Positions 24,608 through 44,515 of a stretch of 64,000 nt of DNA are shown in pieces. The translations under genes were made by a program, and so were the position numbers. The DNA comes from Euryarchaeota archaeon UBA88. GTDB lineage: Archaea; Thermoplasmatota; Poseidoniia; Poseidoniales; Poseidoniaceae. The stretch lies in NCBI GenBank assembly GCA_002499545.1, contig DAME01000003.1:77089-141088 (forward strand), read 5' to 3'. Position 1 is the stretch's first letter, and the number at the start of each line of letters is the position of its first letter. Under the pieces are notes generated by a model. The model had not been told where the DNA came from and ran no database searches. It was given only the letters and a program-made list of their open reading frames with translations.

Positions 24608-25363
24608 TCACACATTCCCTCTGACCGTCTTGCAACCCACGCCCCATTCCTGTTCCTGCATTGCAGAACGTGTCGCATCGAGTAACTCATCTTCTGCCGA
24701 GTATACACGCTCGCTCCCCTTCTTCCAAGCAAGCGCCATTTGAACTCCATCAAAACTCCAACTTTTCAATTGAATTTTTGATTTTTCAATTGATATTTCC
24801 TCATTTCTCTCTTCAATTGGAATTTTAATTAAGCGAGGGTTGAGATGCATCCCTAACTGCATGGCTTTTTGGACAGCTTCTTTCGAAGTCCATAGCTCAA
24901 TAGCCCGGTCAGAATTAGAACGAAGCCACCGCAACTCCTCCCCCTTAGCCATCATGTCAAATGCATTGGCAGCGATACCTCGCTGAGCATCTTCTGCATC
25001 AAAACCGACCGACCAGCCATGTTCTGCCAAAGCCACATACGCCCATCCACTGGAATGGCATACGCTCATTGCAGGCAAAGGTGAATTAAGCCACACACCA
25101 GGTAGATACGAAAGCACTGGAGCCCGCTGTGACGTACGAAGGACTTCAATCGCAGAGACTTCAAGACCCCATTCTCGCAGTGCTTCACCCAATAGCCAAC
25201 GCCCACTGAGATGTTCATTCATACGCTTGGCTGTGGCGAAGGTTGCCACTTCATCAATCTGGGCCAGTCCTACGAGTTCGACCGCGACTGTACGAACACG
25301 GGTCCTAAAAAGTCGCATCTGTATTGGAATAGAAAACGGAGGAAACACTTCCTCGACTGTCAT
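24608..25363 (-). CDS. 4'-phosphopantetheinyl transferase, Sfp type
   Basis: GFDAEDAQ (G-x-D motif) and WTSKEAVQKAMQLG ((F/W)-x-x-KE-A-x-x-K motif). The ATG lies 9 nt after the megasynthase stop, with GGTGG in between. Confidence 0.85.
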   Translation of the reverse strand: MTVEEVFPPFSIPIQMRLFRTRVRTVAVELVGLAQIDEVATFATAKRMNEHLSGRWLLGEALREWGLEVSAIEVLRTSQRAPVLSYLPGVWLNSPLPAMSVCHSSGWAYVALAEHGWSVGFDAEDAQRGIAANAFDMMAKGEELRWLRSNSDRAIELWTSKEAVQKAMQLGMHLNPRLIKIPIEERNEEISIEKSKIQLKSWSFDGVQMALAWKKGSERVYSAEDELLDATRSAMQEQEWGVGCKTVRGNV

Positions 25364-25372
25364 AGTACCACC

Positions 25373-28300
25373 TCAGCGTTCAAGCGTGAACGCTTGTTCA
25401 TCAGGCACTGGAGCCATACTCTTGAGCCGCAGCCCCTTCATTGCGATGACTGGAGCGTCGTCGTCCCCGATAATCACAACATCGTGTACTGTGATACCGG
25501 CATCTTCCACCGATGTGCGTAGACTTCGCATGCGGAGTACTTCATCGCGTTCAGGAACCCGAAGCATCGACGACCACTCAATCCCAACAGGCAGTGACGA
25601 GAAACCTTCAGATTCCATCGCCACCAAGCCAGCGTTCTGGAAACCAGCCTCGATCAACATCGGTAAAGCTTCCAACAACACGACCTCGCCCTGAGTCTCC
25701 AAAGCAAACTGGTCGAGAACTGGGAGTTGGTGCCGCATGAGGGCAATTCCATCTGCTCCGGGCGTCTCCACATCCCCAACACCGCGAAGGACACCTCCGT
25801 GTGATTGGAATCGAGGTCCGTGGAAGTATCGCCTGTAAATGAAGGACGGCAACTCGGAAAGTTCACCCATGGCTGGAGTACCAATGTGAGGCAGCGCATC
25901 AACCTCAGATTGTAGGAAAGGTCCAAGGTCGTCGTGCAGTTCAACGAGACGTACAACAGCGACATGATGTTCCCGTTGTCCGAACACCTCCCCTTTCGAG
26001 TTGGTGAGATCCGAAAGAAGCTGGCATGAAACCCAACTCATGCCACCTTCACTGCGGAGTAAATCACATTGTACGCGTACCGTCATCGCACCCCTTAGCA
26101 ACTTTACTGGCAAACCAAAAGTGACTTCTTCAAATCCAGCCAAGCATGCGGAAGGACGCAGGAGTAAAGCCCCCTCTGCAAACATCTCCAGTGCCATTAC
26201 ACCAGGATGGTAGGGCACGCCATCGATGGCGTGGTCTGACAAGAATGGATGGTCAGCCACAGAGAGAGTAGATTGAGTGGTCAGTGTCGTGCCCTCCGAA
26301 TAATCTAGAACCTTATCGATGAATGGGAACCTGTAAGGGTCTGCCAGTATTGCTGCCATTTCAGCAGGTAATCGAAGTGGTGATTCACGGAACACATCGT
26401 GAACGTCCATGAGACCAAGTCGCCCACATCCCAGAACCCGGCGCTTCCCACCTTTCAGAGCCTCGTCAACGAATATTTCAACGCCTTTTTCTACTGAAAT
26501 AGTATCGATACCTGCTGCATCGAAAACGGCTTGGAACGACCCTCGTGTTGCCATTCCAACATCGCGCCATCCCGTCCATGCAATGGATACTGCTCTGCAC
26601 GTTCCAGTTGCTGTAAGGCGGGCCATCTCTGCATCAAGTACGCTGTTCGCAGCAGCATAATCGGTCTGTCCATTGTTACCAAATCGCCCAGCTACGCTGG
26701 TGAAACATGCAGCAAAGCGTAATCCATCGCTTTGGGATGCTTCTACTGCCGCTATCAAGGCCTGCCATCCATCGACCTTCACTCGAACCACGTTGTCGAA
26801 CACTTGATTGTCCTTGTCAGCGACGAGTTTCGAATCTTCAAGACCTGCGCCGTGCACTATGCCTGTGATTGGGCGACCAAGTTGACTTCCAACCTTCTTC
26901 AACCCGTCAACATCAGTTACATTCACTGAATGATAGGATGCAGTATTACCCGTATCCTCGATGGTCTTGATGGTGAGGTGCACGTCTCGGCTTCGGGTGA
27001 AGTTCTGCCAAGCGTTGTTCCATTCAACCATAGTGACCTTATCACCGTTTTTGGCATCAATCATAGAACTACGAAGAGCGTTTTTGCGGTCTGATAGTTG
27101 TTCATCAGACCAAGCAAGCCATTCGTTGGTTTCTTCGATGAGGTGTGATCGTCCAAGCAATGCAAAGTGTGCTCCGATGTTTGAAGACTGCTGAGCAACG
27201 CCAATTATTGAAGCAGCGGTAACACCAGACCCGCCTCCTGAAACAATCCACGTATCGTCGGACTTGAGAGGCGTTTCGACGTTCGACGAATCCTCGGCGA
27301 AGGCGACAAGCGTCCAACGACGTCCATCTCTATCAAGACCGATTTCGACCTCACCTCCGATATTGAACAAGTCGTGTTCAACTTGTAGCGCCGCCTCGTC
27401 TGCATCAAGAATCAATTCAGGATGAAGGTCCAGTGCGCGTGAACGGACATGCTGCCGTTCAAAGGAATACGATTTGGTCACGCCAGATGCGGCACATTGA
27501 ACGGCATTGAATCGCTCACCAATATTTCCGTGCCGTCCATCAAGGGCCGTAACTGATGCAACCAAGCCATCATTGCGGGTTGAAAGGGCGGCATCGAAGC
27601 CTTTCAACAGCCCGAAGTAACCGTGTGCTGCTAAAGCGATTTGAGAGGAAGGAATGGTATCTTCAACCCACGATGCACCGGCCAGCTTGAGAGGGGCCAT
27701 GTGGACAATTCCAGCCACATTGTGAGAGGAAAGTTCACTGCATACTTTCGCAATGTGTTCGGGGTTGGCAGGATCTGCACGGAAGACCGTTCGTTGACCC
27801 TCCATTTGTGTTGACATGTCACGGATATCGCTTTCAAACCCAACTCGAACAGCTGCAAGTCCGCGGGCTTCTATTTTCTGACATAGTGCCTCTGCGATGC
27901 CCCAGCCATCGTCGGTCACCACGATGGTGCCTTCCAGCGAGAGTGGCGAACTGGTACCTTGGCACTCCTCGACCTCAACTTGCCAGCGTCGGCACGGATC
28001 GGGTGAATCATCCAGCAGCAGCGTTTCAGCAACCGCGAAGTCGCTTGGTTGAGCATGTTCAACGGGTGCGATAGAAATTTCAGTCGCTGAACCTCCCCTC
28101 ATAAGAACGATGTAAGCGATGAAATGATTCAATGTTGGATGGTCAGACAGAATAAATTCTTCATCGATAGGAAGTTCGAATGCATCGCGTACATCGCCCA
28201 TGATTTCGGCTTGCTTGACCGTATCAATTCCCAATTCACCCTCAAGGTCTTGGTCCAACTCGATGAAATCGCTTGGGTAACCGGTGTGCTTGACAACGAT

Positions 28301-31300
28301 TGAAACCAATTGTTCCACAATCGCTTCATCGGTATGAACGCCTACCGGAGCAGGTACTGGTTCGGGAGGTGAATCGGTCTTGACGGGTTGTGGTTCTGCT
28401 GCTGGTTCGACGACTGCTTGGACTGTTGATTTGCCCCCCGTCATGGTTTGAATGTACGCAATCATGTGGTTCAGCGTCGGATAGTCTGAGAGAACAAATG
28501 CTTCATCGACGGGAAGAGAAAACCGTTCCCTGATCTCTGCCATGATTTCTGCTTGTTTGACCGTATCAATACCTAATTCGCCTTCGAGATCTTGGTCTAA
28601 TTCAATGAAGTCACTCGGATAGCCCGTATGATTGACAACGACTTCTACAACTGTAGCGATGAGTTGAGAATCATCGACTGAGGGCCTGGGCCCGGTTTGA
28701 GGAATGGTTTCCGTCGTTGGTACTTCTTTGACTGGTGATTCGGGTACTACAGGGATTTCAGCGGATTGTGAAGGTGCAGCAACTGGCGAACCAGATGTCA
28801 TTCGTTCGATGTACGCAATCATGTGATTAAGGGTCGGATAGTCTGAAAGAATGAACTCTTCATCGACTGGAAGTGAGAACTTTTCTCGGATTTCAGCCAT
28901 GATTTCCGCTTGCTTAACGGTGTCAATACCTAATTCACCTTCCAAGTCTTGTTCTAATTCGACAAAGTCTGCAGGATACCCCGTATGATTGACGACTACT
29001 TCTACAACCGTGGCAACCAAATCGTCAGGTGCTGAAGTCGGTAGCGTTGAGTGGACAACTGGAACTGGTTCTGGCATCGGAACTGGTTCTGGGGCAGGTG
29101 ACGGTTCTGTAACTTCAGCACTCATGCTTGGCATTCCTTCCCAAGCAGCCGTGACGTCCCAAGGCAGACCCTGTACGCCGCCATGTAGGTTCTCATCCCC
29201 TTTCACATATGCAACCAATTTGTTTTCAAGAATTCGTAAGACAACGTCTTCCGTGCCTGCGAGACCTCTTGACCATGCCAAGAATTGCGCACCGTTGATT
29301 CGTTCGCCGACAACCGGCCACTTGCGAACCAAAGACAGTGCTACTTGAGACCCAAAACCTGCAGCAAAGCGTAACCCGTACTCCAAGTGCGGATATTCGC
29401 CACCCTTGGAGAGGTTCAAATTTCCGAGCTCCGGATCGGTTTCTTTATGATTCGCAATCGGAGGGATGCGCCCGGTTTCCAGTCCGTACAACATGCTTGC
29501 ATCCTCGATACCTACACCCATTGGATGGCCAGTGAATCCTTTGGTGTTAGCAATGACAAGCGAGTCAGTGCTTTGGCCAAACGTATCGCGCAGAGCGCGG
29601 ACTTCTGATTGGGCTGAACCCCCACGAGCAGGTGTGAATGTTTCATGCGAGAAGAACACCGTTTTTGGCGCCATTTCATGTCGGTCAAGGTCCCATTTCT
29701 GTTCCATAGAACCGATGAATTGGTCAACAATTTCAGCAACGTGATCCACGTCTAATCGGGTCCCATGGAATGCTGAATTTGCAGTCGTGGCACCAAGTAA
29801 TTCTGCGATAGGTTGTACACCCCTTTCGGCTGCGACTGAATGCCGTTCAACGACGAATGCTGCAGCACCCATACCTAAGATCAACCCGTTTCGACGGCGG
29901 TCAAACGGCAAAGCAGTTTCTTCAACCACATTACCCGTGGCAGCGGCACCTGAAGCTGCAAAGCCGCTTCCAATCCATTCCCACAGATCATCGCCAGTGA
30001 CATCATCTGCTGAGATGATGACAACACGGTCGACTCGATCGCTGTTCAACCAGTCTTCAGCGACACCAAATGCAGCAGTTGAGGATGCGCATGCGAGATT
30101 AATGGTCGTGTTCGGTCCGCGAATCCCAGAATATTGGGCAAATTGTGAATGACCCATGTTGAGAGTCTGGAACAAGTATCGACGGTCAAACCGTCCCTCT
30201 CCATCATCTCCGTTGGTTTTCGCATGCTGCATCGCTTTTTGCAACCCAGGGAAGCAGGATGCGAACACGACACCCGTTCGTTCACGTCGATGTTGAGGTA
30301 CTTCCCAATTCCGAATTAAACGAAGGCCGCCCTTGCCAATTTGCTCGTTTGGAGTGAGCGGTATTCCGGCATCTCTCAGGGCCAAAAGCCCCGCTGCAAC
30401 ACCCAATTGTGTCGTGATGTCCCATGCCAATATGGATTTAGGGTCGATTCCGAATTCATCTGCTAAATCAAACGCTGCCTTCACCCCAGCAAGTTGAGGT
30501 ATGTCTCCAAACTCAGTTGCTTGTTCCATGTTCACAGAACCGTCTCGGCCTTTGATGAGGCGGACGATGTTCTTGTCGAGGAGGCGTTGTTTGTATTCGT
30601 CACTGACTTCAGAGATACAGGTCTCACCTCGAATGAGACGCTCAAAGGTGTCTTCTTCAAAGACGCGTTCTCCTCCGGGTAGACCCAACGACACCCCTGT
30701 GATGACATACGGGTCTGCTTTGCGTTGTTCGTGCAGCGACGGTGAAGATGAGTGCTGAACCGATGCACTTGGGACTGCGTGTACCATTGAGGTGCGAGGC
30801 GTCCATGCTGGTGGCGGGCCCTCGACCCAAGCCATCAAGTCGGACGCGAGAACCAAACTGGAACGGTCGATGTCTGGCTTCGTAGAAGTCTCGGTAGAGA
30901 TGGTATGGAGTAAGGAGGTCACCTTTTGCTCAGACAGGCCAAGGCCTGCTCGAAGGTTGACATTACCGTTACAGAATCGAGAGGGGTATCCGCTCAGTGC
31001 CGCTAATCGGTCCCCGATGTAGGCCTCTTTGGCTTCACGGGCTGCAACTTCAGGGTCGATGATTTTTGATTGTTGAACCGTGACGGTTCGAGGTAGTGCA
31101 GCAGGAGAAGAGCTTTCAACGGTGGGCAAAGGACGTGAACGGGTCCGCAAATCCTCCACGTGCGAGGACAATTTTGGTGATGGATTAGCTACGTGATAGG
31201 CTTCTAATGGCCCGGCACGGAATCCTTCAGAGAGGACGGTCGAGGTTCCAGCTGGCCAGATGGGTTGACGGCCGGCTAGAGCTAGCGTACCCAATGCGGA

Positions 31301-34192
31301 GAGGAAAGAAGCAATACCGCCCTGCTTGGGGTGGTTTGTCATGATTGGAAGATGGGGTTGGTCTTCTAGAATTTGAACAGCAAACATTGTCAATGCCCGC
31401 TTTGGACCTACTTCAAGGAACACTCGGGCACCTGCCTCATACATGGTTTCAATTTGTGTCGTCCATTCGACCGCTGATGCCATTTGTGGTGCTAACTTTT
31501 CAAGAATACCTGCCTTCGAATCTTTTCCTTCAGTGGGATAAAATTGTCCGTCGACGTTCGCAGTGATTGGGATACTAGGCCAGCGAATCTCGAGCCCTTC
31601 GAGGAAACGGCGAAGTGGTTCGTTCGCAGGGGCGACGATGCGTGAATGGAATGCGTGAGATGTAGCGAGGGGGACGCACTGGAAACCTTTGGCATCAAAC
31701 GTAGCCACGGCATTCTTGACAGCGTCGGTTTCCCCAGCAATTACGGTCATCTTCGGAGAGTTCTTGTTGGCAGCAATAACGTAGCCATCCGCTTCACTCA
31801 GCACAGCCGCAACCTCATCGTAAGGCGCCATAATACTCGCCATCAGCCCTTTATCATCGATTACGACCGAGCCCATTTCAGTACCTCGTGCCGCAGAAGC
31901 ACGCAGGGCGCCGTCCATGTCAAGAATTCCTGCAGACATCAAGGCAGCGTATTCACCAAGTGAGTGCCCAGCGACCATATCGGGCTTTTGCCCATGGTCA
32001 TTCAGTGCTCGTTCAATGGCTAAGTCGGCTGTAAGCATGGCAGGTTGAGTGTATTCAGTTTGCTTCAGTTTGAATTCTGCTTCTTTGAGTTGCTCTTTAT
32101 CCAGATTCGCACGGAGGACGAAACTGGAAAGCGTTTCTCCGTCAAGAACCTCGACCATCGTTCTGTCAGCTTGCGCCCACACCTCTTGGACTGATGAAAA
32201 ACGTTGATACAAGTCATAGGTCATACCGACATACTGACTACCCTGGCCCGGATACATGTGGGCTATCTTTGCCTGAGAAGGAAGTGGAGGATCGTTGGTA
32301 ATGAGAACGCCTTGGGCCTGTAAGAACCCCCATTTCTCTGAATCGTCCATCGCTTTCAGGGCCAGAGCGGTTCGCTTGTGGAACTCGGACCATGATGTTG
32401 CAACAATGCACATTCGGAATGACGCCTTGGCATCAAATTCAGACGACATATGGTTCAATACGATCGATAATCGTTGACCGTGGGGGTCGCTGTCGAAATG
32501 TTCGCCGTCCAGTTCCAATGATTCAATCTGCGACTTCAACCCGGATAGTTCGTCTGCCGAGAGCAGGAGAATTCCCCCCTCAATCGCCTTCAACTCGTCG
32601 TGAGTCATGCTTGGTGTGGCGGTGGAATCGAGTATAGATGGTGATTCAGGCACCGTATTCGTACCAATTGTGGAAGTGTTTTTGGCATAAGCATCCCATC
32701 GATTCTGCCATTGTGAAGCAAGTTCTGCGTGATAGTCTGGCTCATATCCTTCTAGAGCGACGTGAAAATTCGTGCCCCCAAATCCGAAGGCAGAGACTCC
32801 GGCTCGGCGAGGATGACCTTCTGGACGTGGCCAGTCACGGGCCTCAGTTGGTACGAAGAACGGGATATTCCCCCAGTCGACGGTGGGATTTGGAGTCTTG
32901 AAACCGGCAGAAGGGGGGATTGTTCGATGGTGAAGGGCCATGGCTGATTTGATCAGGCCAGCGATTCCCGCAGCAGCCTTCAAGTGGCCGATTTGTGACT
33001 TTATTGAACCGACTGCGACATGGTCACCCGGTGGTGAACCATCCCATATAAGCGAAAGAGAGCCCAATTCAGTTGCGTCTCCAACCTTGGTTGAAGTCCC
33101 GTGCGCTTCGATGAGTTCCACTGTCGTAGCATTGTATCCCGCTTGCTCGTACGCACGGGCAATCGCTTGGAGTTGGCCGCGCTGACTTGGAGCAGTGATT
33201 CCCTTGCCCCTACCATCAGATGAACCACCGACGCCCCGAATGACAGCATACACTTCGTCGCCATCATGAATCGCATCGTTCAAGCGCTTGAGGACAAATG
33301 CGCCTGCACCCTCGCCCATCACGAAACCGTTTGCTCCAGCGTCAAAAGGCGTCGAATGTGTTGGTGAAAGGGCGCCAATCGCGCTGAACTTCGCGTACGT
33401 AGGGGCGTCTAAGCTTCGGTCCGTAGCGCCAGCAACCATGGTGTCGACTTGTCGCATCTGTAAGGCGCGACAAGCGTCGAGAACTGCTGCCAAGGACGAG
33501 GCACATGCCGCGTCCATTGCGTAATTGGGACCTTGGAGGTCGAGAAGATTCGCTACCCTTCCAGCAACAACGTTCGCTAATTCACCTGGCATGGTGTCTT
33601 CATTGATGCGAGGGGTGTTTTGAATCATAGAATCGACGAAAGCTTTCGCATTCGAATCCGGAAGCCCCTGTGCTTTGGCAAGTTCTGAGACGTGATTCGA
33701 ATAAATCCGGATGTTGGAAAGGTTTCGGTTCTCGCCACCTAATGCATTCGCAAATGCAACTCCAGTACGCTTTCGGTCGATGTCTTTCTCAACGCCATCA
33801 TACCCTGCTTGTTCAATTGCAGCGGCAGCGACGCTGACCGCCCATTGCTGGCTCAAATCGATTTGAGATAATGTTCCTGGTGGCTGCTTCCAGCGCCGCC
33901 AATCGAATTCATACCCCTCGACCATTGCACCAATTTTCGAATAAGTGAATCCTTCCTCGATATTACCCGGTCCGCCTTCGCGATAGAAATGCTTCATCGG
34001 CCCGGTCCAGCGGTCATCCCGCAGCGTCCGAATACTGACTTTGGCATCGAGAATGTTTTGCCAAAACGCATCGATATCTGGGGCATCGGGCATCAGTGCT
34101 GAAATCCCAACCACTGCAATGGGTTCAAACGGACCTTGGTCAAGGCCCTCGATTTCGTTTCCTTTCGAATCTTTAACCATAGAATCCCTCAT
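25373..34192 (-). CDS. Iterative type I PKS / PUFA-synthase-like megasynthase, KS-AT-KS-ACPx3-KR-DH
   Basis: The track ORF starts at 34291 and overlaps fabI. ATG 34192 overlaps the fabI stop as ATGA (alternative ATG 34180 with GAGGGA upstream). Domain motifs are listed in the sub-features below. Confidence 0.95.
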   Translation of the reverse strand: MRDSMVKDSKGNEIEGLDQGPFEPIAVVGISALMPDAPDIDAFWQNILDAKVSIRTLRDDRWTGPMKHFYREGGPGNIEEGFTYSKIGAMVEGYEFDWRRWKQPPGTLSQIDLSQQWAVSVAAAAIEQAGYDGVEKDIDRKRTGVAFANALGGENRNLSNIRIYSNHVSELAKAQGLPDSNAKAFVDSMIQNTPRINEDTMPGELANVVAGRVANLLDLQGPNYAMDAACASSLAAVLDACRALQMRQVDTMVAGATDRSLDAPTYAKFSAIGALSPTHSTPFDAGANGFVMGEGAGAFVLKRLNDAIHDGDEVYAVIRGVGGSSDGRGKGITAPSQRGQLQAIARAYEQAGYNATTVELIEAHGTSTKVGDATELGSLSLIWDGSPPGDHVAVGSIKSQIGHLKAAAGIAGLIKSAMALHHRTIPPSAGFKTPNPTVDWGNIPFFVPTEARDWPRPEGHPRRAGVSAFGFGGTNFHVALEGYEPDYHAELASQWQNRWDAYAKNTSTIGTNTVPESPSILDSTATPSMTHDELKAIEGGILLLSADELSGLKSQIESLELDGEHFDSDPHGQRLSIVLNHMSSEFDAKASFRMCIVATSWSEFHKRTALALKAMDDSEKWGFLQAQGVLITNDPPLPSQAKIAHMYPGQGSQYVGMTYDLYQRFSSVQEVWAQADRTMVEVLDGETLSSFVLRANLDKEQLKEAEFKLKQTEYTQPAMLTADLAIERALNDHGQKPDMVAGHSLGEYAALMSAGILDMDGALRASAARGTEMGSVVIDDKGLMASIMAPYDEVAAVLSEADGYVIAANKNSPKMTVIAGETDAVKNAVATFDAKGFQCVPLATSHAFHSRIVAPANEPLRRFLEGLEIRWPSIPITANVDGQFYPTEGKDSKAGILEKLAPQMASAVEWTTQIETMYEAGARVFLEVGPKRALTMFAVQILEDQPHLPIMTNHPKQGGIASFLSALGTLALAGRQPIWPAGTSTVLSEGFRAGPLEAYHVANPSPKLSSHVEDLRTRSRPLPTVESSSPAALPRTVTVQQSKIIDPEVAAREAKEAYIGDRLAALSGYPSRFCNGNVNLRAGLGLSEQKVTSLLHTISTETSTKPDIDRSSLVLASDLMAWVEGPPPAWTPRTSMVHAVPSASVQHSSSPSLHEQRKADPYVITGVSLGLPGGERVFEEDTFERLIRGETCISEVSDEYKQRLLDKNIVRLIKGRDGSVNMEQATEFGDIPQLAGVKAAFDLADEFGIDPKSILAWDITTQLGVAAGLLALRDAGIPLTPNEQIGKGGLRLIRNWEVPQHRRERTGVVFASCFPGLQKAMQHAKTNGDDGEGRFDRRYLFQTLNMGHSQFAQYSGIRGPNTTINLACASSTAAFGVAEDWLNSDRVDRVVIISADDVTGDDLWEWIGSGFAASGAAATGNVVEETALPFDRRRNGLILGMGAAAFVVERHSVAAERGVQPIAELLGATTANSAFHGTRLDVDHVAEIVDQFIGSMEQKWDLDRHEMAPKTVFFSHETFTPARGGSAQSEVRALRDTFGQSTDSLVIANTKGFTGHPMGVGIEDASMLYGLETGRIPPIANHKETDPELGNLNLSKGGEYPHLEYGLRFAAGFGSQVALSLVRKWPVVGERINGAQFLAWSRGLAGTEDVVLRILENKLVAYVKGDENLHGGVQGLPWDVTAAWEGMPSMSAEVTEPSPAPEPVPMPEPVPVVHSTLPTSAPDDLVATVVEVVVNHTGYPADFVELEQDLEGELGIDTVKQAEIMAEIREKFSLPVDEEFILSDYPTLNHMIAYIERMTSGSPVAAPSQSAEIPVVPESPVKEVPTTETIPQTGPRPSVDDSQLIATVVEVVVNHTGYPSDFIELDQDLEGELGIDTVKQAEIMAEIRERFSLPVDEAFVLSDYPTLNHMIAYIQTMTGGKSTVQAVVEPAAEPQPVKTDSPPEPVPAPVGVHTDEAIVEQLVSIVVKHTGYPSDFIELDQDLEGELGIDTVKQAEIMGDVRDAFELPIDEEFILSDHPTLNHFIAYIVLMRGGSATEISIAPVEHAQPSDFAVAETLLLDDSPDPCRRWQVEVEECQGTSSPLSLEGTIVVTDDGWGIAEALCQKIEARGLAAVRVGFESDIRDMSTQMEGQRTVFRADPANPEHIAKVCSELSSHNVAGIVHMAPLKLAGASWVEDTIPSSQIALAAHGYFGLLKGFDAALSTRNDGLVASVTALDGRHGNIGERFNAVQCAASGVTKSYSFERQHVRSRALDLHPELILDADEAALQVEHDLFNIGGEVEIGLDRDGRRWTLVAFAEDSSNVETPLKSDDTWIVSGGGSGVTAASIIGVAQQSSNIGAHFALLGRSHLIEETNEWLAWSDEQLSDRKNALRSSMIDAKNGDKVTMVEWNNAWQNFTRSRDVHLTIKTIEDTGNTASYHSVNVTDVDGLKKVGSQLGRPITGIVHGAGLEDSKLVADKDNQVFDNVVRVKVDGWQALIAAVEASQSDGLRFAACFTSVAGRFGNNGQTDYAAANSVLDAEMARLTATGTCRAVSIAWTGWRDVGMATRGSFQAVFDAAGIDTISVEKGVEIFVDEALKGGKRRVLGCGRLGLMDVHDVFRESPLRLPAEMAAILADPYRFPFIDKVLDYSEGTTLTTQSTLSVADHPFLSDHAIDGVPYHPGVMALEMFAEGALLLRPSACLAGFEEVTFGLPVKLLRGAMTVRVQCDLLRSEGGMSWVSCQLLSDLTNSKGEVFGQREHHVAVVRLVELHDDLGPFLQSEVDALPHIGTPAMGELSELPSFIYRRYFHGPRFQSHGGVLRGVGDVETPGADGIALMRHQLPVLDQFALETQGEVVLLEALPMLIEAGFQNAGLVAMESEGFSSLPVGIEWSSMLRVPERDEVLRMRSLRTSVEDAGITVHDVVIIGDDDAPVIAMKGLRLKSMAPVPDEQAFTLER
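25412..26329 (-). other. Megasynthase domain DH (PKS-type double hot-dog dehydratase)
   Basis: LSDHAIDGVPYHPG matches H-x3-G-x4-P (His2687). The C-terminal hot-dog half contains GPRFQ... Confidence 0.75.
26432..27994 (-). other. Megasynthase domain KR (ketoreductase with structural subdomain)
   Basis: TWIVSGGGSGVTAASIIG Rossmann motif, GIVHGAGLED and catalytic GQTDYAAANSVLDA. Confidence 0.85.
28094..29023 (-). repeat. Three tandem acyl-carrier-protein domains (coding repeat, period 357 and 342 nt)
   Basis: Three copies of ...VVNHTGYPSDFIELDQDLEGELGIDTVKQAEIMAEIRE.F.LPVDE.F.LSDYPTLNHMIAYI... separated by P/E/V-rich linkers. The copies differ at many synonymous sites. Confidence 0.9.
29318..30715 (-). 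other. Megasynthase domain KS2 (second, apparently catalytically intact ketosynthase)
   Basis: INLACASSTAAF (Cys1401, codon 30089-30091), PFDRRRNGLILGMGAAAFVVE, SAFHGTRLD (His1509) and NTKGFTGHPMG (His1589). Confidence 0.85.
31352..32266 (-). other. Megasynthase domain AT (malonyl-type acyltransferase)
   Basis: YPGQGSQYVGM, GHSLGEYAA (Ser777, codon 31961-31963) and the SHAFHS (HAFH) motif associated with malonyl specificity. Confidence 0.9.
32747..34129 (-). other. Megasynthase domain KS1 (ketosynthase)
   Basis: EPIAVVGISALMPDA, DAACASS (Cys263 in ORF-track numbering, codon 33503-33505), EAHGTSTKVGD and GSIKSQIGH. Confidence 0.9.
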
Positions 34193-34983
34193 TGGTCCAT
34201 AATGCTCGGAGGCACCATCGTGATTGAGTATCCACCATCGACGTAAATGCATTGGCCGGTCACGCCACTTGCAAGAGGACTTGCAAGCCACAGCGTGGCA
34301 CCTGCAACGTCTTCTTGGTTGACATTTCTCCTCAAAGGAGCGTTTTCCTCGACGTGAGCAAGGATGTTATCGAAACCAGGGACTCCGCTTGCGGCAATGG
34401 TGCGAATCGGCCCGGAAGATATGGCGTTAACTCGGTGACCTTCGGGGCCTAAATGGCATGCAAGTTCGCGAGTCCAACATTCAAGGGCTGCTTTGGCCAT
34501 CGACATAATACCATAATTTGGAACGAATCTATTGGAAGCAGCGTAGGTCAGAGTGATCGTTGAAGAACCGGGGTTAAGGTACGGAAGTGCATGCTTCAAA
34601 CAGCGTTGAAGTGAGTTGGCAGAAATGGTCATTGCCGTGTTAATATCGGTGTCTTCAACGAAAAGAATTGGGCGGTCGAAGCAGGCTCGAGGTGCAAAGC
34701 CGATGGCGTGAATGAGGATATCTGCCTTCTTACCAGGGTGTTCTTTCTCAAAGGCTTCGAAGAATTCACGAGTCGTTGCGTCTTCTGCAACATCCAGAGG
34801 ATAAAATCCCCCTATCTGTGGAAGTTTGTCCTTCAGTTGGAAAATACGACTCATGAATCTTTTCTGATAACCGAGATACAGCGTCACACCTGCGGCAGCG
34901 AGATGTTGACAAATCGCCCAAGCAATGGAATCTTCACTGGCGACTCCGAAAACGAAGGCTGTCTTTCCTTGTAATTTGAGCAT
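34189..34983 (-). CDS. fabI: Enoyl-[ACP] reductase, FabI type
   Basis: GKTAFVFGVASEDSIAWAI, NYGIMSMAKAALE (Y-x6-K) and SSGPIRTIAASG. Start taken at Met14 with GGTTGGTG upstream (the track ORF starts at 35022). Confidence 0.9.
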   Translation of the reverse strand: MLKLQGKTAFVFGVASEDSIAWAICQHLAAAGVTLYLGYQKRFMSRIFQLKDKLPQIGGFYPLDVAEDATTREFFEAFEKEHPGKKADILIHAIGFAPRACFDRPILFVEDTDINTAMTISANSLQRCLKHALPYLNPGSSTITLTYAASNRFVPNYGIMSMAKAALECWTRELACHLGPEGHRVNAISSGPIRTIAASGVPGFDNILAHVEENAPLRRNVNQEDVAGATLWLASPLASGVTGQCIYVDGGYSITMVPPSIMDQ

Positions 34984-35097
34984 AAATGCACCAACCCAAT
35001 GGGTAGATGTTGGCTGACACACCAGTCCTATGACTGTTCCCTCTCATGGAATAAAGAAAACAGTGGTTCTGCAACCCTTTTTTGACGGCCGAAACGG

Positions 35098-37237: not shown

Positions 37238-37786
37238 TTAGATTCGCTGAACAAACATTCCTTTTTCTTGAAGAATTCCGCGCCAGTAAACAGCAGCCAT
37301 CGCAACCATGTTTCGATGCCGTGCATCGGTTGCCACGCAGCGACCGTTTGGCCACATGTGCAACGTGAGGTTGTGCCGGGTATCCGATACAACGCTGCAA
37401 CCCAGTCGCTGGTCGTAGACAGAAGTACCGGCGTTAAAGTCGCCCACCAACTGGTTAACGTCCAAATCACTGCCAAATTCAAAAGATGCGACAACTGGTC
37501 CTAGTTCCGTTTCAAGCCCTGAATCACTGAGCCCTAAACGCAGCATCAATTCTTTGGCTGCCGCACGTGCAGATTCAACTCGATGTGTACCGTGCACGAC
37601 TATTCGACCTTCTGCATCGATGACAATGGTTGCTCTTGGGTGGTCCAGCACCTTGATGACAACGCCACCAGTTTGTTGACCACCTAATTGGGCAACAACG
37701 GCTGATTGGTCAATAGGCGAGGGTGCAACAAAGCGAACAAGCTGATTTTCGATTCGTACGTCAATGGTTCCAGCTGCCATATTCAC
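37238..37786 (-). CDS. Divergent TBP-fold (TATA-box-binding-protein-like) two-repeat protein
   Basis: 182 aa. Repeat 1 is VRIENQLVRFVAPSPIDQSAV...PRATIVIDAEGRIVVHGTHRVESARAAAKELMLRLGL. Repeat 2 is PVVASFEFGSDLDVNQLV...HNLTLHMWPNGRCVATDARHRNMVAMAA. This matches TBP topology, but the canonical FPG and SGK-TGAKS motifs are absent. Its ATG overlaps the upstream stop by 4 nt. Confidence 0.4.
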   Translation of the reverse strand: MNMAAGTIDVRIENQLVRFVAPSPIDQSAVVAQLGGQQTGGVVIKVLDHPRATIVIDAEGRIVVHGTHRVESARAAAKELMLRLGLSDSGLETELGPVVASFEFGSDLDVNQLVGDFNAGTSVYDQRLGCSVVSDTRHNLTLHMWPNGRCVATDARHRNMVAMAAVYWRGILQEKGMFVQRI

Positions 37787-38599: not shown

Positions 38600-41500
38600 T
38601 TACTGGCTCTCTACCCACTCGAGTAACGCTTGAACGCTCCATCCTTGGTCGAAGTATCCTTGGATTTCTTCCTGAGTCCACTGAGGGAACTTCTGCATGG
38701 CATCACGCATCTCTGGTGAGAGGCTCGAGGCTGCTGGAGGCGGCCCTGAGAGAGTCGAAGATTGCTGAGGAATATCGACATAGGTTTTCGAATCTGATTC
38801 ATCGTCTTCATCGAACAAGTCAGATTCTCCACTGCGACGGATCAGAACGAATACCAGTGTTCCGAGTACTGCTACGGCAATTCCGAGTATCGATGCTAAC
38901 ACCACGAATCCAGTCGAGTCAGACGACTGACTTTCGACCTTGACGTTGAATGATTCTCCTACAGAGGAACCGTTGAACAACAGTTCATTTGTCGTGTTGT
39001 CTGAAATCATGTAGTACATTCCAGTAGTCGCCAAATTAAACTGTTGAAGTTCAACTGAAATCCACGACTTTTGTCCAACTGCAATTTCTCCGGTAGATAC
39101 GCTGCTCTCAAAGATGGGGGTACTTCCACCAATCACCGAGCGGATATTGAGGTCTGTGGATCCGTCCATAGTCCCATCGTTTCGAACTTCGATTTCAAGT
39201 GTAACCTTGTCGCCAACCTCTGGAGATGAAGGCGACATGATCACGTTATCGATGAGGAAACTGGCTTCTTCATGAATCAACTCATACATGGACTTGTGAA
39301 CTGGGTCCCCTGAATTGATGAATCCAATACTTCCGTCTTCATTTGGGCCGCCGCCAAGAATTGCACGGGTACCTGCTGAATCGGTTGCATCAATCCAAAA
39401 CACGATATCGACGTTGGATATTTGCTCACGTTCAGGATCATCTTGTCCTTCTGAGAGTGGCCACAAGTCGATGCAGTCACCAACTGCAGAATACGAACCA
39501 CCGCTCTCACTGATGATGAGTTCATGCGACATTGGTTCATCGCCGAAAGTACTGCGGTAAATCGGCCAAGTAATGTTGTTGGACGAATCGGTGTAGAAAC
39601 TCCACGAAACAAAGACGTCGCCTTGGAACATTGCTTCTCGTTCTTCGAGAGCAACTTGTACATCGACACAATGGAAGGTCGAAGTCGGCAACACATTTGC
39701 CATTGGCTCATTGGTCAATCCTTTCATTGCAGACCATGAGTTGGATGAAACCCGAGGTGCGGTTCCGTCAACTTTGATCTTGAAGTTTTGGCACCCATAT
39801 GAAGCGGAGCCGGCACAGAATGCAGAGGTACTGTCAACTGCTCCCAGAGGGAGGCCAGCAATACCGTTTCCACACTCACCGTTGACTCCACCAGAACCAC
39901 CGGTCGCGTCATAGGGGCACAATCTGAAGACGTAGGTGTATTCGTTGGTCACTGGAGGTGCCGTGATGTTAATGTCGAATACGCCACCAGTGAACGAGTG
40001 ATATGTCACTTCACCAGGGAATGCAATGTAACCCTTGGCGCCGTCCATAGATGCAGCTTGCCGGGTAATCTCGAGCGTCAATTCGGTTTCAGGAGTGATG
40101 TAGACTTCGTTGTTAATTCCTTCAACGTAAGCGTATTGACCCTCAAATCCAATGATGTCACCGGGATAGACGAAGCCCTTGCGAACATCGTTTGTTTTCG
40201 GCTCCATGAGATCCATGAATGTAGGTGTGACCATCAAATCGTTGGCCGTATCTGCACGGAAATCAAGTTGAATTCCATCACTGTAGTACCAGTCTTGAAT
40301 GTGTCGACCGGGAGCCGGCAACATGCGGTATCGTGGGTTATCCAAGTCCTGCATGTACAGCACAGGGTTGTTCAACGAACTGGAAGCACCCGGCAGCCCC
40401 CACGTCATTCGAATCGGCAGGTCGAGGTAGAAATCAGATTCAAACGGATCGATTAAGACGCCGCCATCCATTCGCAGAACTTGGGGTCCTTGTGATGTCG
40501 CCGATTCTCCGAGAATTTCGATGAATGGGCTTGAAGTCCATGCAGTTTGGTTTCGTGGGAAGAACCAGACGGTCATGTCGTCTCGGTCATCAGCCAGGTC
40601 GACTCGGAAGTAGTCAACATCACGCCATCCGTTGTCGTCGTTTGCTTCTACAATCAGGTGATATTCGTTTCCAGCGTACATGGTTTGGTTCCACTTTCCG
40701 TTGTATTGCTGTTGATTGGACTTAAGGAAGCGACTTTCCTGTGAATCTTCAACGAAGAAATTTCGGATCACTGGCGACTTAGAACTCATTGAAACATAGG
40801 TGAACTTATCGTTTTCAAATCCTGGTGCTCCACCGTTTATGGCGTTACCAGCGAGGTCAAATCCTTCAATCCAAATGCTGACTTTACCTACTGGGTCTTT
40901 ACCAACGTTCGCGTAATCGTTGAACGTTGCGGTGTAGTTTGCAAATGGAGCGGCTCCATCGCTGTTTGCTGTCACCGTGATGTATTCATCAGCATCGGCT
41001 TGTCCATCACCATTCGTGTCGTGGTCGTGTTCGACCCATACCATGATGTTCAGCGACGAAGGCGGATTTGGAAGGTCGCTAGCATTCAAACGGATTTTCT
41101 GAGTTGTTGATGGAACAACCCACGTATCATCAACCATCACACGCCAGTTACTTTCCACCGATGGATCGACTTCTCCGTTAAGAATTCGCACATCGACAAG
41201 ATTCGGGTCCAGTGTGTCGATTGAAAGGTTGAACGGAATAGCACAGGAACTGTCAGGTCGGTACTCTGCAGCAGGGCAAAGTGTGTCTCCACCCTCGTAA
41301 CCGTCTATGCGGAAACGATAGGTGTCTTGACCAGCAGCCATGCCGAGGTCAATTTGCCAGTTGAAGTCACCGCCAATTACACCTGATTGGTTTGCAACTG
41401 TATGCCATTCAACGCTGATGTTTCCATTCGAGTTGTTGATGAACTTCTGTTCAAGCACCATAAAGTAGCCACTTGGGTCAGGTGATATCGACAGGTCTTG

Positions 41501-44500
41501 CAATCGGATTGAACCAGAAACAGTAACCAATTGACCGGATTTTCCGTCATCGAGGTCTTGGGCGATTCCGATGTTGTTCTCCACTTGGAAGGACGTAATT
41601 TGAGCGTCATTCTCAACAGCATTTCCGCCGTTAGGAGCCATCAAGAGCGCATCCGGCAATCCATTGATTCCGTTTGCAGTAACTAAACCAGAATAGATTC
41701 GAACTTCCTCAGTATCTTCCCAATTTGAGTTAACAGTGAATCGCCAAGTCACTTCAAGACCTTCGGAGATCGGCATGACACTGGAAGACTCTAATGTAAT
41801 CAAATCGAGTTCATCATCTGCTTCAGTAAATCCAAATGAATTACTGTATGAGAGAAGAACCGAGCCCGTTTGAGATTCAAATGCGAGGATGGCTTCAGCC
41901 AAGCTCGTTCCGGTCAGTGAACTTACTGTATGGGTTGTGGAAATTTCATAAATTTCGCCGTTAGGGTACAAACCAACAGGATTTCCTGCCGCAGAAATCG
42001 TGTTCGTGTATCCTGCTGAAGTTTCGATTAGAAGGTCGGAAAATTCCAGTGTGCCGCCAGTAGAACTGGTGACCATGAGCTCAACTTCTGCAGTAGAACC
42101 ACCTTGCCAAAGAGCAATTCCCTTGTTCAACTCAATATCCAATCCATCAGAAGTCCCGAGAACCACTGAATAATTGTACACAATATCAAGGCCTCGAACG
42201 GTCATCTGGGCGCCAGTTGAGGCGTTTGGAGAATTAGCCTTGAGGCGGAAAGTTTGCCACTCGTTGCCGTATTCATCATAGTAACTGGTGGGAACAAGTG
42301 GGTTGGAGAGCAGTGAATTGAGGGCTGTTTTCATGTTGATGTCTTCCGGCAAGTATTCCGGGAAAATCAGAGAAATGTTCGCAACTGAACCCATCACAAC
42401 TTCTTGGGTACCTGACAGTAACGAAAGCTCGAAGCCCTCGCTCAAGTCGTTGGATGAAAAGATACCCATTTGGTCAAATGCAAAGTCAACTGAAGTGACT
42501 TCTGCACCCTTTGGAAGCATGAACATTGCACCTTCAGCAACACCAGATTGATCGATAGTGAGGTTAGAAGAACTCTGTCCGTAATTCACACCATCAATGG
42601 TTGCTTTGAGGAATTCCGTTTGACGCCCGAACGAGCCGAAAGCAGGTTCGTCAAAGCCCCAGTCTACCGTTCCGTCGTTACCAACATCGAGTTGGACGTG
42701 CGTTGCATGATGGCCGAATTCTAAGTCAAACCAGAGTCCGCCAACGTTGCATGCATTTTGGTACATCAGCTGCGCATCAAATCCAAACCATGGCTCTGCA
42801 AGTGTGTAAGTCGTACCACTCTCGGCACCGTTGATTCCGATTCCACCGAATCCCATGAGGTCCAAACTTGGAACCTCTGCACAGTCATCTTGAATCATCG
42901 GTGTGACGCTCGTAATTGGACGATCAAAGTTGCTTCGATGCAGAACAGGAGAGTAGGTATCATCCATCAGCAGAGGCGAGTACATGATTGGCATTCCTTG
43001 ACCAGGCGTCTCCCAAACTCCGTTGACGACATTGTCTGTCATGTCGTCGGTTTGGTTGAAACCGGTACCGACACGTGTACCGATGCTGAATCCGTGGAGG
43101 ACGGGGGATGACAAGCGGCTCGGTCCAGAATTGAACTCTATAGTGAAGTCAATGGATGGATGAGCGCTTGAATCGATGTCCCATAATTCGATGATTTTCC
43201 CCTGTAGGCCAGTCATGAGTTTTCCGTTACGGTCGGTAATCGTCTGACCAGTTGAAGAGTCGTGAACCTCGACATTCAAGGTCGCTGATGTCGTGGTTTC
43301 CGATTCGATTGTCAAAATACCGTAGCCATTTGGTTGGTTGTCGCCGGTTTGAACATAGGGTAAAAATCCGTTGATATCCATCGAGGAAGATTGAGGTAAT
43401 CGGTCTCCGACCCGGAAGTTATCGATGTACCAACCGGCCTTTCCGCCGTCTGCATTGTTGACGTTGTTATCTTCGACAACGAAGCGCATTTCGATGTACT
43501 TTCCGATATAAGGAGCCAGATCAACTGCTAAACTAGCCCATCCGTTCGGGTTAGCAACCGAGGTAGATGACCCTGCAATAGCATAATCTCCGGAAGCAAC
43601 GCCGCCGCAACGGTAGTCGATTTGTCCAGCGTTCGAAGCGCCGCTACTCCGTACATAGTATCCGTTGCCGTAACCGAGACCTGATGAATTTCCAAGGTCG
43701 ATATCCACGTGTTCAAACCCAGTTGGGTCGGAGGTCACGAAGTCATCGTTGAACGAGGAACGTATTTCGACATACGCACAGTCTCGGTAGTTGACCGGTG
43801 GGTTTGTTTGGCCACCAGACCCAGTTTCAACATCAAGGTCGTGCCATGAATCAAAGTATGCCATGTGGTTCTTTAAGTTGGAATCAACGTATATTGAAGC
43901 GGTTGTTAACAGATAGACTCGACCATTGTTTCCGTTGACATATTCATCGGTGTAGTCTTCATCCATCAATCCAGTTCCCCAGCAGTATTCACCACTAGCG
44001 CATGGAGGGATGTTCGTATTTGGTGGAAGAGCATTTGTGTCAATCTGACCGTGGTCCCAGCCAACCCAGTCTTGGGCAAGGGCTCTGTGGTCGATGAAGC
44101 CAGAGGTCGTTTCTTCAAAATCTGTGAGGAAGCCTTCTGATTTGAGGCGGACGGGAACTGAATTCGAACCTTCCTCGTACACGAAATGGGTTTCGTTTGA
44201 AAACTTCGTGAGTTGGTTGTTGTACATGGGGTTCCACACACGGGGCATGGTCTCGATATCGACACGTGAGTGTGCTGCGTGCTCGAGCATGTCGGTGGAA
44301 ACGGTCATCGAAGCATCGACAACGGTCTCATCTGCGGGGAGATTAATTATACCATCATTGGTGTTAATGAAGGGCGTTCCATCTCGGAATTCAATGTCTG
44401 CTGTAGGGTTACCATTTCCGAAATCAGTCACGGTTGCAGCACCTGCAAAGGGGGCCAATACCATTAGGAGTACGAGAAATAATGGGGTTTCTAATCGTCG

Positions 44501-44515
44501 ATTTTCACTGTGCAT
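38600..44515 (-). CDS. Giant (1,971 aa) type I cell-surface protein
   Basis: Signal-like N-terminus (PLFLVLLMVLAPFAGAATV), a beta-rich ectodomain of about 1,850 aa rich in N/T/S/G, a single C-terminal TM (FVVLASILGIAVAVLGTLVFVLI) and a cytoplasmic tail of about 90 aa ending FPQWTQEEIQGYFDQGWSVQALLEWVESQ. Confidence 0.8.
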   Translation of the reverse strand: MHSENRRLETPLFLVLLMVLAPFAGAATVTDFGNGNPTADIEFRDGTPFINTNDGIINLPADETVVDASMTVSTDMLEHAAHSRVDIETMPRVWNPMYNNQLTKFSNETHFVYEEGSNSVPVRLKSEGFLTDFEETTSGFIDHRALAQDWVGWDHGQIDTNALPPNTNIPPCASGEYCWGTGLMDEDYTDEYVNGNNGRVYLLTTASIYVDSNLKNHMAYFDSWHDLDVETGSGGQTNPPVNYRDCAYVEIRSSFNDDFVTSDPTGFEHVDIDLGNSSGLGYGNGYYVRSSGASNAGQIDYRCGGVASGDYAIAGSSTSVANPNGWASLAVDLAPYIGKYIEMRFVVEDNNVNNADGGKAGWYIDNFRVGDRLPQSSSMDINGFLPYVQTGDNQPNGYGILTIESETTTSATLNVEVHDSSTGQTITDRNGKLMTGLQGKIIELWDIDSSAHPSIDFTIEFNSGPSRLSSPVLHGFSIGTRVGTGFNQTDDMTDNVVNGVWETPGQGMPIMYSPLLMDDTYSPVLHRSNFDRPITSVTPMIQDDCAEVPSLDLMGFGGIGINGAESGTTYTLAEPWFGFDAQLMYQNACNVGGLWFDLEFGHHATHVQLDVGNDGTVDWGFDEPAFGSFGRQTEFLKATIDGVNYGQSSSNLTIDQSGVAEGAMFMLPKGAEVTSVDFAFDQMGIFSSNDLSEGFELSLLSGTQEVVMGSVANISLIFPEYLPEDINMKTALNSLLSNPLVPTSYYDEYGNEWQTFRLKANSPNASTGAQMTVRGLDIVYNYSVVLGTSDGLDIELNKGIALWQGGSTAEVELMVTSSTGGTLEFSDLLIETSAGYTNTISAAGNPVGLYPNGEIYEISTTHTVSSLTGTSLAEAILAFESQTGSVLLSYSNSFGFTEADDELDLITLESSSVMPISEGLEVTWRFTVNSNWEDTEEVRIYSGLVTANGINGLPDALLMAPNGGNAVENDAQITSFQVENNIGIAQDLDDGKSGQLVTVSGSIRLQDLSISPDPSGYFMVLEQKFINNSNGNISVEWHTVANQSGVIGGDFNWQIDLGMAAGQDTYRFRIDGYEGGDTLCPAAEYRPDSSCAIPFNLSIDTLDPNLVDVRILNGEVDPSVESNWRVMVDDTWVVPSTTQKIRLNASDLPNPPSSLNIMVWVEHDHDTNGDGQADADEYITVTANSDGAAPFANYTATFNDYANVGKDPVGKVSIWIEGFDLAGNAINGGAPGFENDKFTYVSMSSKSPVIRNFFVEDSQESRFLKSNQQQYNGKWNQTMYAGNEYHLIVEANDDNGWRDVDYFRVDLADDRDDMTVWFFPRNQTAWTSSPFIEILGESATSQGPQVLRMDGGVLIDPFESDFYLDLPIRMTWGLPGASSSLNNPVLYMQDLDNPRYRMLPAPGRHIQDWYYSDGIQLDFRADTANDLMVTPTFMDLMEPKTNDVRKGFVYPGDIIGFEGQYAYVEGINNEVYITPETELTLEITRQAASMDGAKGYIAFPGEVTYHSFTGGVFDINITAPPVTNEYTYVFRLCPYDATGGSGGVNGECGNGIAGLPLGAVDSTSAFCAGSASYGCQNFKIKVDGTAPRVSSNSWSAMKGLTNEPMANVLPTSTFHCVDVQVALEEREAMFQGDVFVSWSFYTDSSNNITWPIYRSTFGDEPMSHELIISESGGSYSAVGDCIDLWPLSEGQDDPEREQISNVDIVFWIDATDSAGTRAILGGGPNEDGSIGFINSGDPVHKSMYELIHEEASFLIDNVIMSPSSPEVGDKVTLEIEVRNDGTMDGSTDLNIRSVIGGSTPIFESSVSTGEIAVGQKSWISVELQQFNLATTGMYYMISDNTTNELLFNGSSVGESFNVKVESQSSDSTGFVVLASILGIAVAVLGTLVFVLIRRSGESDLFDEDDESDSKTYVDIPQQSSTLSGPPPAASSLSPEMRDAMQKFPQWTQEEIQGYFDQGWSVQALLEWVESQ

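Follow-up and report, generated by a model that had tools for sequence, protein, structure and literature searches.

Bacterial polyunsaturated fatty acid (PUFA) synthases of the PfaABCDE type, as found in Shewanella, Moritella and Photobacterium, are organized around PfaA, a polypeptide that joins a ketosynthase (KS), a malonyl acyltransferase (MAT), a tandem array of acyl carrier proteins (ACPs), a ketoreductase (KR) and a dehydratase (DH). Its partners are an acyltransferase (AT, PfaB), a protein that combines another KS with a chain-length factor (CLF) and a FabA-like second dehydratase, DH2 (PfaC), a trans-acting enoyl reductase (ER) of the FabK/NMO type (PfaD) and an Sfp-type 4'-phosphopantetheinyl transferase (PPTase). 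Shulse & Allen distinguished twenty types of Pfa-like "secondary lipid" clusters, among them Type R of Koribacter, Solibacter, Elusimicrobium and Roseiflexus, which has the layout KS-MAT-CLF-ACP(3-6)-KR with a PPTase gene downstream (Shulse & Allen 2011, PLoS One 6:e20146, PMC3098273). CLFs are defined by the loss of the Cys-His-His triad of ketosynthases (PMC3098273; bioRxiv 10.64898/2026.05.19.726425), and according to a 2026 survey just a handful of secondary lipids is known (PMC13291983). The subject of the present analysis is a megasynthase gene of Euryarchaeota archaeon UBA88, a member of the Poseidoniales (Marine Group II, MGII), which lies in a 64,000-nt stretch of contig DAME01000003.1 (positions 77,089-141,088; hereafter the window, to which all coordinates refer). 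It is reasonably probable, if far from assured, that this gene encodes an archaeal member of Type R, namely an iterative synthase of saturated (or largely saturated) long-chain acyl groups, in which two ketosynthases divide the work and which was acquired from bacteria.

The megasynthase open reading frame (ORF; 25373..34291, minus strand, as all features of the operon) forms a single frame of 2972 codons when read from a GTG start, and amino acids are numbered from this GTG (codon 1 at 34291). The likely start is M34, whose ATG (34192-34190) overlaps the TGA of the preceding gene as ATGA. From M34 to the stop, the coding sequence (25373..34192), delimited by Pfam matches, motifs and homologue lengths, yields a protein of 2939 aa, the same size as its homologues: 42 of 46 complete homologous ORFs measure 2700-3100 aa, while the other four are short, broken frames, some of which at least come from long-read assemblies. 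The overlapping upstream gene encodes a FabI-type enoyl-ACP reductase (34189..35022; 236 bits with PF13561, whose cut-off is 27) that shares the catalytic motif Y-x6-K with FabI, read as NYGIMSMAK, but stays far below the equivalog cut-offs of the NCBIfam FabI models (226 versus 391 bits). Only 9 nt past the megasynthase stop begins the gene for an Sfp-type PPTase (24608..25363; PF01648, 32.6 bits; PF17837, 22.5 bits, under its cut-off of 27). Its motifs WTSKEAVQK and MSVCH could be read in the sequence, the latter fitting the hShxH motif of the P1b' class, while a hRxhLS (P0) motif was not seen on reading. The three genes form a compact operon of ~10.4 kb.

According to Pfam searches with the whole protein and with excised pieces, the domains follow the order KS1-AT-KS2-ACP(3)-KR-DH, exactly as given in a preliminary description of this locus, whose contrast with canonical PfaA and PfaC is likewise accurate in the light of Shulse & Allen (PMC3098273). 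The same description held the order to be unusual. This view did not survive, as the order was published in 2011 as Type R and relatives of KS2 are encoded in at least 592 stretches from species-representative genomes, with this order in each related locus that has enough flank; the architecture is common, but it is not characterised. The window protein is a single PfaA homologue with a second KS-like domain ahead of an ACP(3-6)-KR segment, and immediately downstream it has a PPTase with hShxH (P1b') and without P0, both as in Type R. Further similarities are an acetyl-CoA carboxylase (ACC) gene that some genomes have next to the synthase (Koribacter according to the paper, L081 and L082 among the loci compared here) and homologues from the same phyla (Acidobacteriota, L070 and L071; Roseiflexaceae, P0033). 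The MGII version differs in its archaeal host and in its upstream partner, which is FabI instead of an acyl-CoA dehydrogenase (ACAD). Moreover, the "CLF" of the 2011 paper is FabF-like with Cys-His-His-Lys retained, and this applies to the Roseiflexaceae and Acidobacteriota homologues as well; neither the C-terminal DH nor the occurrence of Thr in the ACPs was mentioned at that time. What looks new here is the archaeal host, the replacement of ACAD by FabI and a decayed middle ACP, while two family-wide traits, an apparently active FabF-like KS2 mislabelled as CLF and the Thr-ACPs, seem to have gone unremarked.

The second ketosynthase (KS2, aa 1193-1658; 29318..30715) was aligned twice to solved FabF structures, once as a single sequence and once as a family profile. 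C1401 aligns with the active-site Cys of FabF, H1549 in "FFSHETFTP" with the catalytic first His in "AHGTSTP", and K1584 and H1589 in "NTKGFTGH" with "TKSMTGH". An intact triad had been proposed before and was found, with C1401 and H1589 as assigned. Yet H1509 ("SAFHGT"), formerly taken for the first His, corresponds to a non-catalytic His of FabF ("AYHMT") and has to be replaced by H1549. An excised piece (aa ~1196-1650) matches PF00109 with 62.7 bits (cut-off 20.8). The best NCBIfam model for KS2 is fabF TIGR03150 with 131 bits, far below the equivalog cut-off of 493.75, and KS2 is therefore not a FabF equivalog; searched alone against the PfaA model TIGR02813, it gave no match at E<=1e-5. 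Its 60 best PDB matches are mostly FabF/FabB, supplemented by a small number of related stand-alone KS enzymes; they include neither KS domains of modular type I polyketide synthases (PKSs) nor 6riw, the KS-CLF didomain of PfaC. An AlphaFold2 model of KS2 (pLDDT 75.7, pTM 0.82) retrieved with Foldseek a top 50 of nearly all FabF/KAS II or mitochondrial KAS enzymes, at target-normalised TM values of 0.74-0.85; the best of these structures are FabF, at 0.76-0.85. FabF (KAS II) gives the best match in sequence and predicted fold alike, with Cys-His-His-Lys aligned, although KS2 is a domain of a 2939-aa protein, is only ~20-26% identical, has HETFT for HGTST and contains extra N-terminal elements. 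As judged from these alignments and the model, KS2 is a condensing domain of FabF-like character within a chain that resembles PfaA.

The remaining catalytic domains are of more familiar types. KS1 (aa 56-518; 32738..34126; C263, H397, K431, H436), earlier placed at aa 55-515 with the same Cys263, is recognized within the whole protein by PF00109 (E 2e-68), PF02801 (6.5e-40) and PF16197 (5.4e-08), and alone scores 372 bits with TIGR02813 (PfaA). Its PDB matches are KS domains of PKSs, together with 6riw at 3e-68; kinship of KS2 to the PfaC KS is not supported, since 6riw matches KS1 yet is missing from the 60 best matches of KS2. The single AT (aa 679-1004; 31280..32257; PF00698, E 4e-35; TIGR00128 fabD, 213 bits) shows the predicted Ser777, in GHSLG, and the malonyl-type motif HAFH (879-882). 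The KR region (aa ~2100-2620; 26432..27994; PF08659, 93 bits) has its catalytic part at aa 2434-2577 with Tyr2545 in YAAAN, and the PKS-type DH (aa 2656-2961; 25409..26326; PF21089, 37.6 bits; PF14765, 23.2 bits, just short of the 23.7 cut-off) carries H2687 in HAIDGVPYHP and E2881xxxQ2885.

Beyond these domain identities, the conservation of catalytic residues can be read directly from alignments that comprise, depending on the domain, 48-70 archaeal and 2-10 bacterial homologues. The C/H/K/H residues are invariant in KS1 (67 sequences) and in KS2 (80 sequences), as are Ser and HAFH of the AT (76), Tyr of the KR (53), and His, Glu and Gln of the DH (50). The invariant triads, and the full length of most homologous ORFs, argue that both ketosynthases are catalytic. 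Residue-level alignments and conservation rule out that KS2 is a CLF or a degenerate domain, as the preliminary description had anticipated: the Cys-His-His triad is kept, hence KS2 is not a CLF.

KS2 may still act as a functional equivalent of a CLF or as a priming decarboxylase that, paired with KS1 or alone, would mainly decarboxylate malonyl-ACP and set the chain length, with KS1 performing all condensations. PfaC and type II PKSs as a rule contain KS/CLF-type pairs, Shulse & Allen labelled this very domain a CLF (PMC3098273), and KS2 is divergent, with its HETFT motif and a weak match to PF02801. The anammox heterodimer of FabF homologues (amxFabF2/amxFabFmut) primes by decarboxylation (bioRxiv 10.64898/2026.05.19.726425) and, like the other KS/CLF heterodimers, resembles the megasynthase in having two KS-fold units in one pathway, the second of which possibly primes by decarboxylation or sets the chain length. 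In these heterodimers, however, the second unit has lost the triad, whereas C1401, H1549, K1584 and H1589 are invariant in the 80 KS2 homologues and both units of the megasynthase keep theirs. KS1 and KS2 are also parted by the AT and an ACP remnant and are not arranged in tandem, and 6riw, with its strong match to KS1, is missing from the best PDB matches of KS2. We regard this possibility as unlikely and prefer two condensing ketosynthases in an iterative acyl synthase.

An iterative synthase of this kind would depend on its carrier domains. The three tandem ACPs (aa 1757-2066; 28094..29023) were recovered where they had been predicted, as three stretches of PF00550. Each contains the motif LGIDTVK, in which Thr1791, Thr1910 and Thr2024 (codons 28919-28921, 28562-28564 and 28220-28222) occupy the phosphopantetheine position and align with the attachment Ser in DS(L/I) of the PigH ACPs and AcpM. 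The conserved attachment Ser in (D/E)S(L/I), typical of PF00550, is found in none of the three. This also separates the megasynthase from PfaA, whose ACPs use Ser, in LGIDS. Across related loci, bacterial ones included (L002-L080), Thr holds this site in 70 of 74 motif variants, and Ser takes its place only at L058, L061, L073 and L076; among database fragments, Thr was present in 74 of 76 motifs, with Ser in P0031. The occasional Ser within the family suggests that the cognate PPTase treats Ser and Thr alike. In the literature, phrase searches for phosphopantetheinylation of Thr returned nothing. According to the textbook rule, the phosphopantetheine residue is always Ser; a conserved Thr in its place calls this into question.

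A further carrier-like element lies between AT and KS2. Part of the ~200-aa linker noted there before (aa ~1089-1159; 30815..31027) is a degenerate ACP-like remnant (psiACP). Alignment of the MGII linker profile to the family ACP profile with hhalign gave a probability of 94.9% (E 4.2e-8), whereas pairwise phmmer of linker against ACP was insignificant. The remnant has Glu at the attachment position. In the bacterial loci L074 (9431-9649), L077 (2161-2379) and L083 an intact ACP is located between AT and KS2. The order KS1-AT-psiACP-KS2-ACP(3)-KR-DH, with the middle ACP intact in some bacteria, suggests that the megasynthase arose by fusion of a KS-AT-ACP with a KS-ACPn-KR-DH protein. In L083 (3220-6341), two aromatic ammonia-lyase genes directly precede the synthase, a possible sign that this lineage uses an aromatic starter unit.

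Conceivably, this composite structure could reflect a two-module and partly non-iterative PKS, in which KS1-AT-ACP, as module 1, would select or extend a starter and KS2-ACPn-KR-DH would iterate, to furnish a specialised lipid or polyketide and not bulk membrane fatty acids. The ACP remnant, its intact bacterial counterparts and the ammonia-lyase pair of L083 would fit such a scheme, and Shulse & Allen assigned the whole class to "secondary" lipid synthases. In MGII, by contrast, the attachment residue is gone from the middle ACP, so that module 1 would be without a carrier of its own, and there is just one AT. Both MGII families moreover have the operon as a conserved core locus and not as a patchy accessory cluster, and the bacterial context of ACC, ACAD and wax ester synthase/diacylglycerol acyltransferase (WS/DGAT) genes is that of fatty acid metabolism. 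A two-module PKS thus appears quite unlikely, and an iterative acyl synthase remains the preferred reading.

Enoyl reduction would be provided in trans. FabI is located immediately upstream of the megasynthase in every archaeal locus with flanking sequence and takes the slot that in bacterial homologues is held by a ~555-aa ACAD-like gene. The latter lies directly upstream of the synthase in seven of nine bacterial loci with flank and on two further contigs (L067, L070, L071, L075, L078, L079, L080, L081 and L082), and is often joined by electron-transfer flavoprotein (ETF) alpha/beta or Fe-S/CCG oxidoreductase genes. FabI and ACAD are non-homologous, yet the alpha,beta bond of acyl thioesters is the target of both, and they occupy the same slot, from which we infer a trans-acting enoyl-reduction step. 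The earlier proposal that this step is delegated to a FabI-type and not a PfaD/FabK-type enzyme stands in so far as FabI is coupled upstream and no PfaD-type ER occurs among the larger ORFs of the window; it has to be limited to the archaeal version, because bacterial homologues have an acyl-CoA dehydrogenase instead. Every bacterial locus with enough flank shares KS1-AT-KS2-ACP(3-5), followed by KR and DH wherever the sequence extends. ACC genes are present in L081 and L082, in L081 as a multidomain ACC between synthase and PPTase and accompanied by WS/DGAT. To judge from these neighbours, the bacterial clusters with ACC genes, ACAD, ETF/Fe-S partners and WS/DGAT represent a fatty acid context.

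PfaABCDE systems share with the MGII locus the PfaA backbone with tandem ACPs, a trans-acting ER, an Sfp-type PPTase and more than one KS; in the megasynthase, however, the second KS lies on the same chain between AT and ACPs, retains its Cys and is FabF-like. A genuine PUFA synthase making polyunsaturated fatty acids is highly improbable and was rejected: among NCBIfam models, PfaA TIGR02813 fits the whole protein best and tandem ACPs are typical of PUFA synthases, but the score of 892.9 bits (893) does not reach the cut-off of 1010.1 (1010), neither PfaB, PfaC, PfaD nor a FabA-like DH/isomerase was detected by Pfam in the larger ORFs of the window (nor the three Pfa partners in the conserved synteny), the sole DH is PKS-type, and it is FabI that is coupled to the synthase.

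To place the locus among its relatives, one genome per GTDB species was scanned with a KS2 profile, and 80 loci were kept. The best 66 of these and four more belong to Poseidoniales or to other metagenome-assembled genomes (MAGs) labelled Euryarchaeota/Thermoplasmatota. They span both Poseidoniaceae and Thalassarchaeaceae and include one single-cell genome (L043). The remaining kept loci are from bacterial MAGs (Acidimicrobiia, Acidobacteriota, Myxococcales, "delta proteobacteria", Verrucomicrobiia and one unclassified bacterium). Most of the sequences nearest to the AT-KS2 region, at 65-86% identity, carry the labels Euryarchaeota, Thermoplasmatota or Candidatus Poseidoniales, while bacterial homologues of the same domain order, from Roseiflexaceae and Acidobacteriota, are ~45-50% identical. 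In a neighbour-joining tree of 157 KS2 domains, the 70 archaeal sequences form one clade, separate from the 87 bacterial ones.

The FabI-megasynthase-PPTase operon is syntenic in ~70 Poseidoniales loci, and wherever the flank suffices, the archaeal order o1971-o271-TBP-like-TatD-choice-of-anchor-T-FabI-megasynthase-PPTase is largely kept, a few loci being without a choice-of-anchor-T or o1971 match (TBP, TATA-binding protein). The PPTase follows downstream in archaeal loci with long enough flank and in bacterial L074, L078 and L082, and farther downstream in bacterial L067 and L081. Bacterial contamination or mis-binning of the UBA88 contig is ruled out by the thermosome (group II chaperonin), the TBP-like gene and HMG-CoA synthase that flank the locus, and a binning artefact by the synteny shared among ~70 independent archaeal assemblies. 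By these comparisons, the megasynthase is a genuine, old and conserved archaeal gene, whose archaeal host the preliminary description had not recognized. Two records labelled Bacteroidota stand apart: L038 (CAXRAI010000082.1, labelled Salinimicrobium sp. MAG) has the full MGII synteny from o1971 through PPTase, and P0004 is labelled Flavobacteriales. Both are probably archaeal contigs mis-binned into bacterial MAGs.

Taken together, the locus is best explained by a single iterative type-I FAS/PKS polypeptide (FAS, fatty acid synthase) that would build a chain from malonyl-CoA with the aid of a co-translated FabI and a dedicated PPTase. The PPTase would prime the three ACPs, apparently on Thr, and the AT, with its malonyl-type HAFH motif, would load malonyl units. 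Both ketosynthases, KS1 of PfaA/PKS type and KS2 of FabF type, would then condense. Because each keeps Cys-His-His and Lys, a division of the work between them by chain length or by stage is probable, for example initiation and early rounds versus later elongation, and both different chain-length windows and a priming-plus-elongating pair are plausible. Precedents for such a split are FabB and FabF of E. coli and the PfaA-KS/PfaC-KS pair of PUFA synthases. KR, PKS-type DH and the trans-acting FabI would finish each round. As predicted from its sequence, this domain set with FabI and PPTase is a complete iterative fatty acid cycle with no route to cis double bonds. Since the megasynthase has no thioesterase (TE), release of the product might fall to an acyltransferase or to a separate thioesterase. 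The operon would have been gained once from bacteria by an ancestor of the Poseidoniales, with FabI replacing the ACAD partner. The activity of each domain, the division of labour between the ketosynthases, the saturated product, the priming of Thr and the direction of transfer are all deduced from these features. Two further genes of the window lie 10-15 kb from the operon: a 4HBT-fold thioesterase (44709-45173, plus strand) is a candidate for chain release, and a stand-alone biotin carboxylase (48985-50325, minus strand) a candidate for malonyl-CoA supply, although neither a biotin carboxyl carrier protein nor a carboxyltransferase, sought as its ACC partners, is among the window ORFs scanned.

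Several points weigh against an iterative, saturated Type R synthase acquired from bacteria. PPTases are not known to accept Thr at the phosphopantetheine site, for which reason the carrier function of the three ACPs is assumed, and the S36T variant of E. coli ACP is, as far as we are aware, not modified by AcpS. The first-His motif of KS2 reads HETFT or HETYT instead of HGTST, and its C-terminal half scores 17.9 bits with PF02801, under the cut-off of 20.8. FabI may not take part in every cycle, and Pfam found no TE domain as release enzyme in the larger ORFs of the window. The KS2 tree is midpoint-rooted and gives no direction of transfer, which is why the direction is drawn from distribution. 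Finally, no biochemically characterised Type R member or product is found in the literature (PMC3098273; PMC13291983).

According to the current view, neither FAS I nor FAS II occurs in Archaea, and nearly all of these organisms also lack ACP and ACP synthase (bioRxiv 10.1101/2024.07.05.601840). The complete set of ACP, PPTase, KS, AT, KR, DH and FabI in a conserved core operon of MGII runs counter to this view. A fatty acid route has been proposed for another archaeon, in form of the Sulfolobus acidocaldarius complex (bioRxiv 10.1101/2024.07.05.601840). That complex is CoA-based, consists of thiolase, DUF35, SDR and MaoC proteins and operates without ACP or PPTase, whereas the bacterial-type locus of MGII depends on both. 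MGII are reported to be without glycerol-1-phosphate dehydrogenase but with glycerol-3-phosphate (G3P) dehydrogenase (Rinke 2018), and carry PlsC-like acyltransferases (Rinke 2018; Besseling 2020). It is possible, though we propose it tentatively, that MGII make their own fatty acids by a bacterial-type, ACP-dependent megasynthase whose carriers are phosphopantetheinylated on Thr, and that these feed G3P-based ester or mixed membranes. If so, this would constitute a natural crossing of the "lipid divide" in one of the most abundant groups of planktonic archaea as well as the first carrier-protein family to bear its prosthetic group on Thr. Which lipids MGII contain has a bearing on the lipid divide and on lipid proxies such as TEX86. 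For the family at large, a triad-bearing FabF-like KS as second KS-like domain of Type R would alter models of the iterative mechanism in hundreds of genomes. Full-text literature searches found no mention of a Pfa/PKS megasynthase or ACP in MGII/Poseidoniales, although an earlier mention in Villanueva et al. 2017 or Martin-Cuadrado et al. 2015 is possible.

A few neighbours of the operon deserve mention. An Rfam scan of the window gave zero matches. The 1971-aa ORF o1971 (38600-44515, minus strand) is without Pfam or NCBIfam match, and almost every MGII locus has it, with 32-71% identity, at the same site upstream of the lipid operon. The 182-aa TBP-like protein (37238-37786, minus strand) matches Pfam TBP with 39.6 bits in one repeat, is far under the NCBIfam TBP cut-offs (26 versus at least 181 bits) and is syntenic across MGII; it may be a divergent TBP paralogue. 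Farther away, a flavodoxin-FAD-NAD(P) reductase of the P450-reductase or sulfite-reductase-alpha type (51005-52810, minus strand) is encoded divergently to an amine-oxidase/phytoene-desaturase-like flavoprotein (52989-54623, plus strand).

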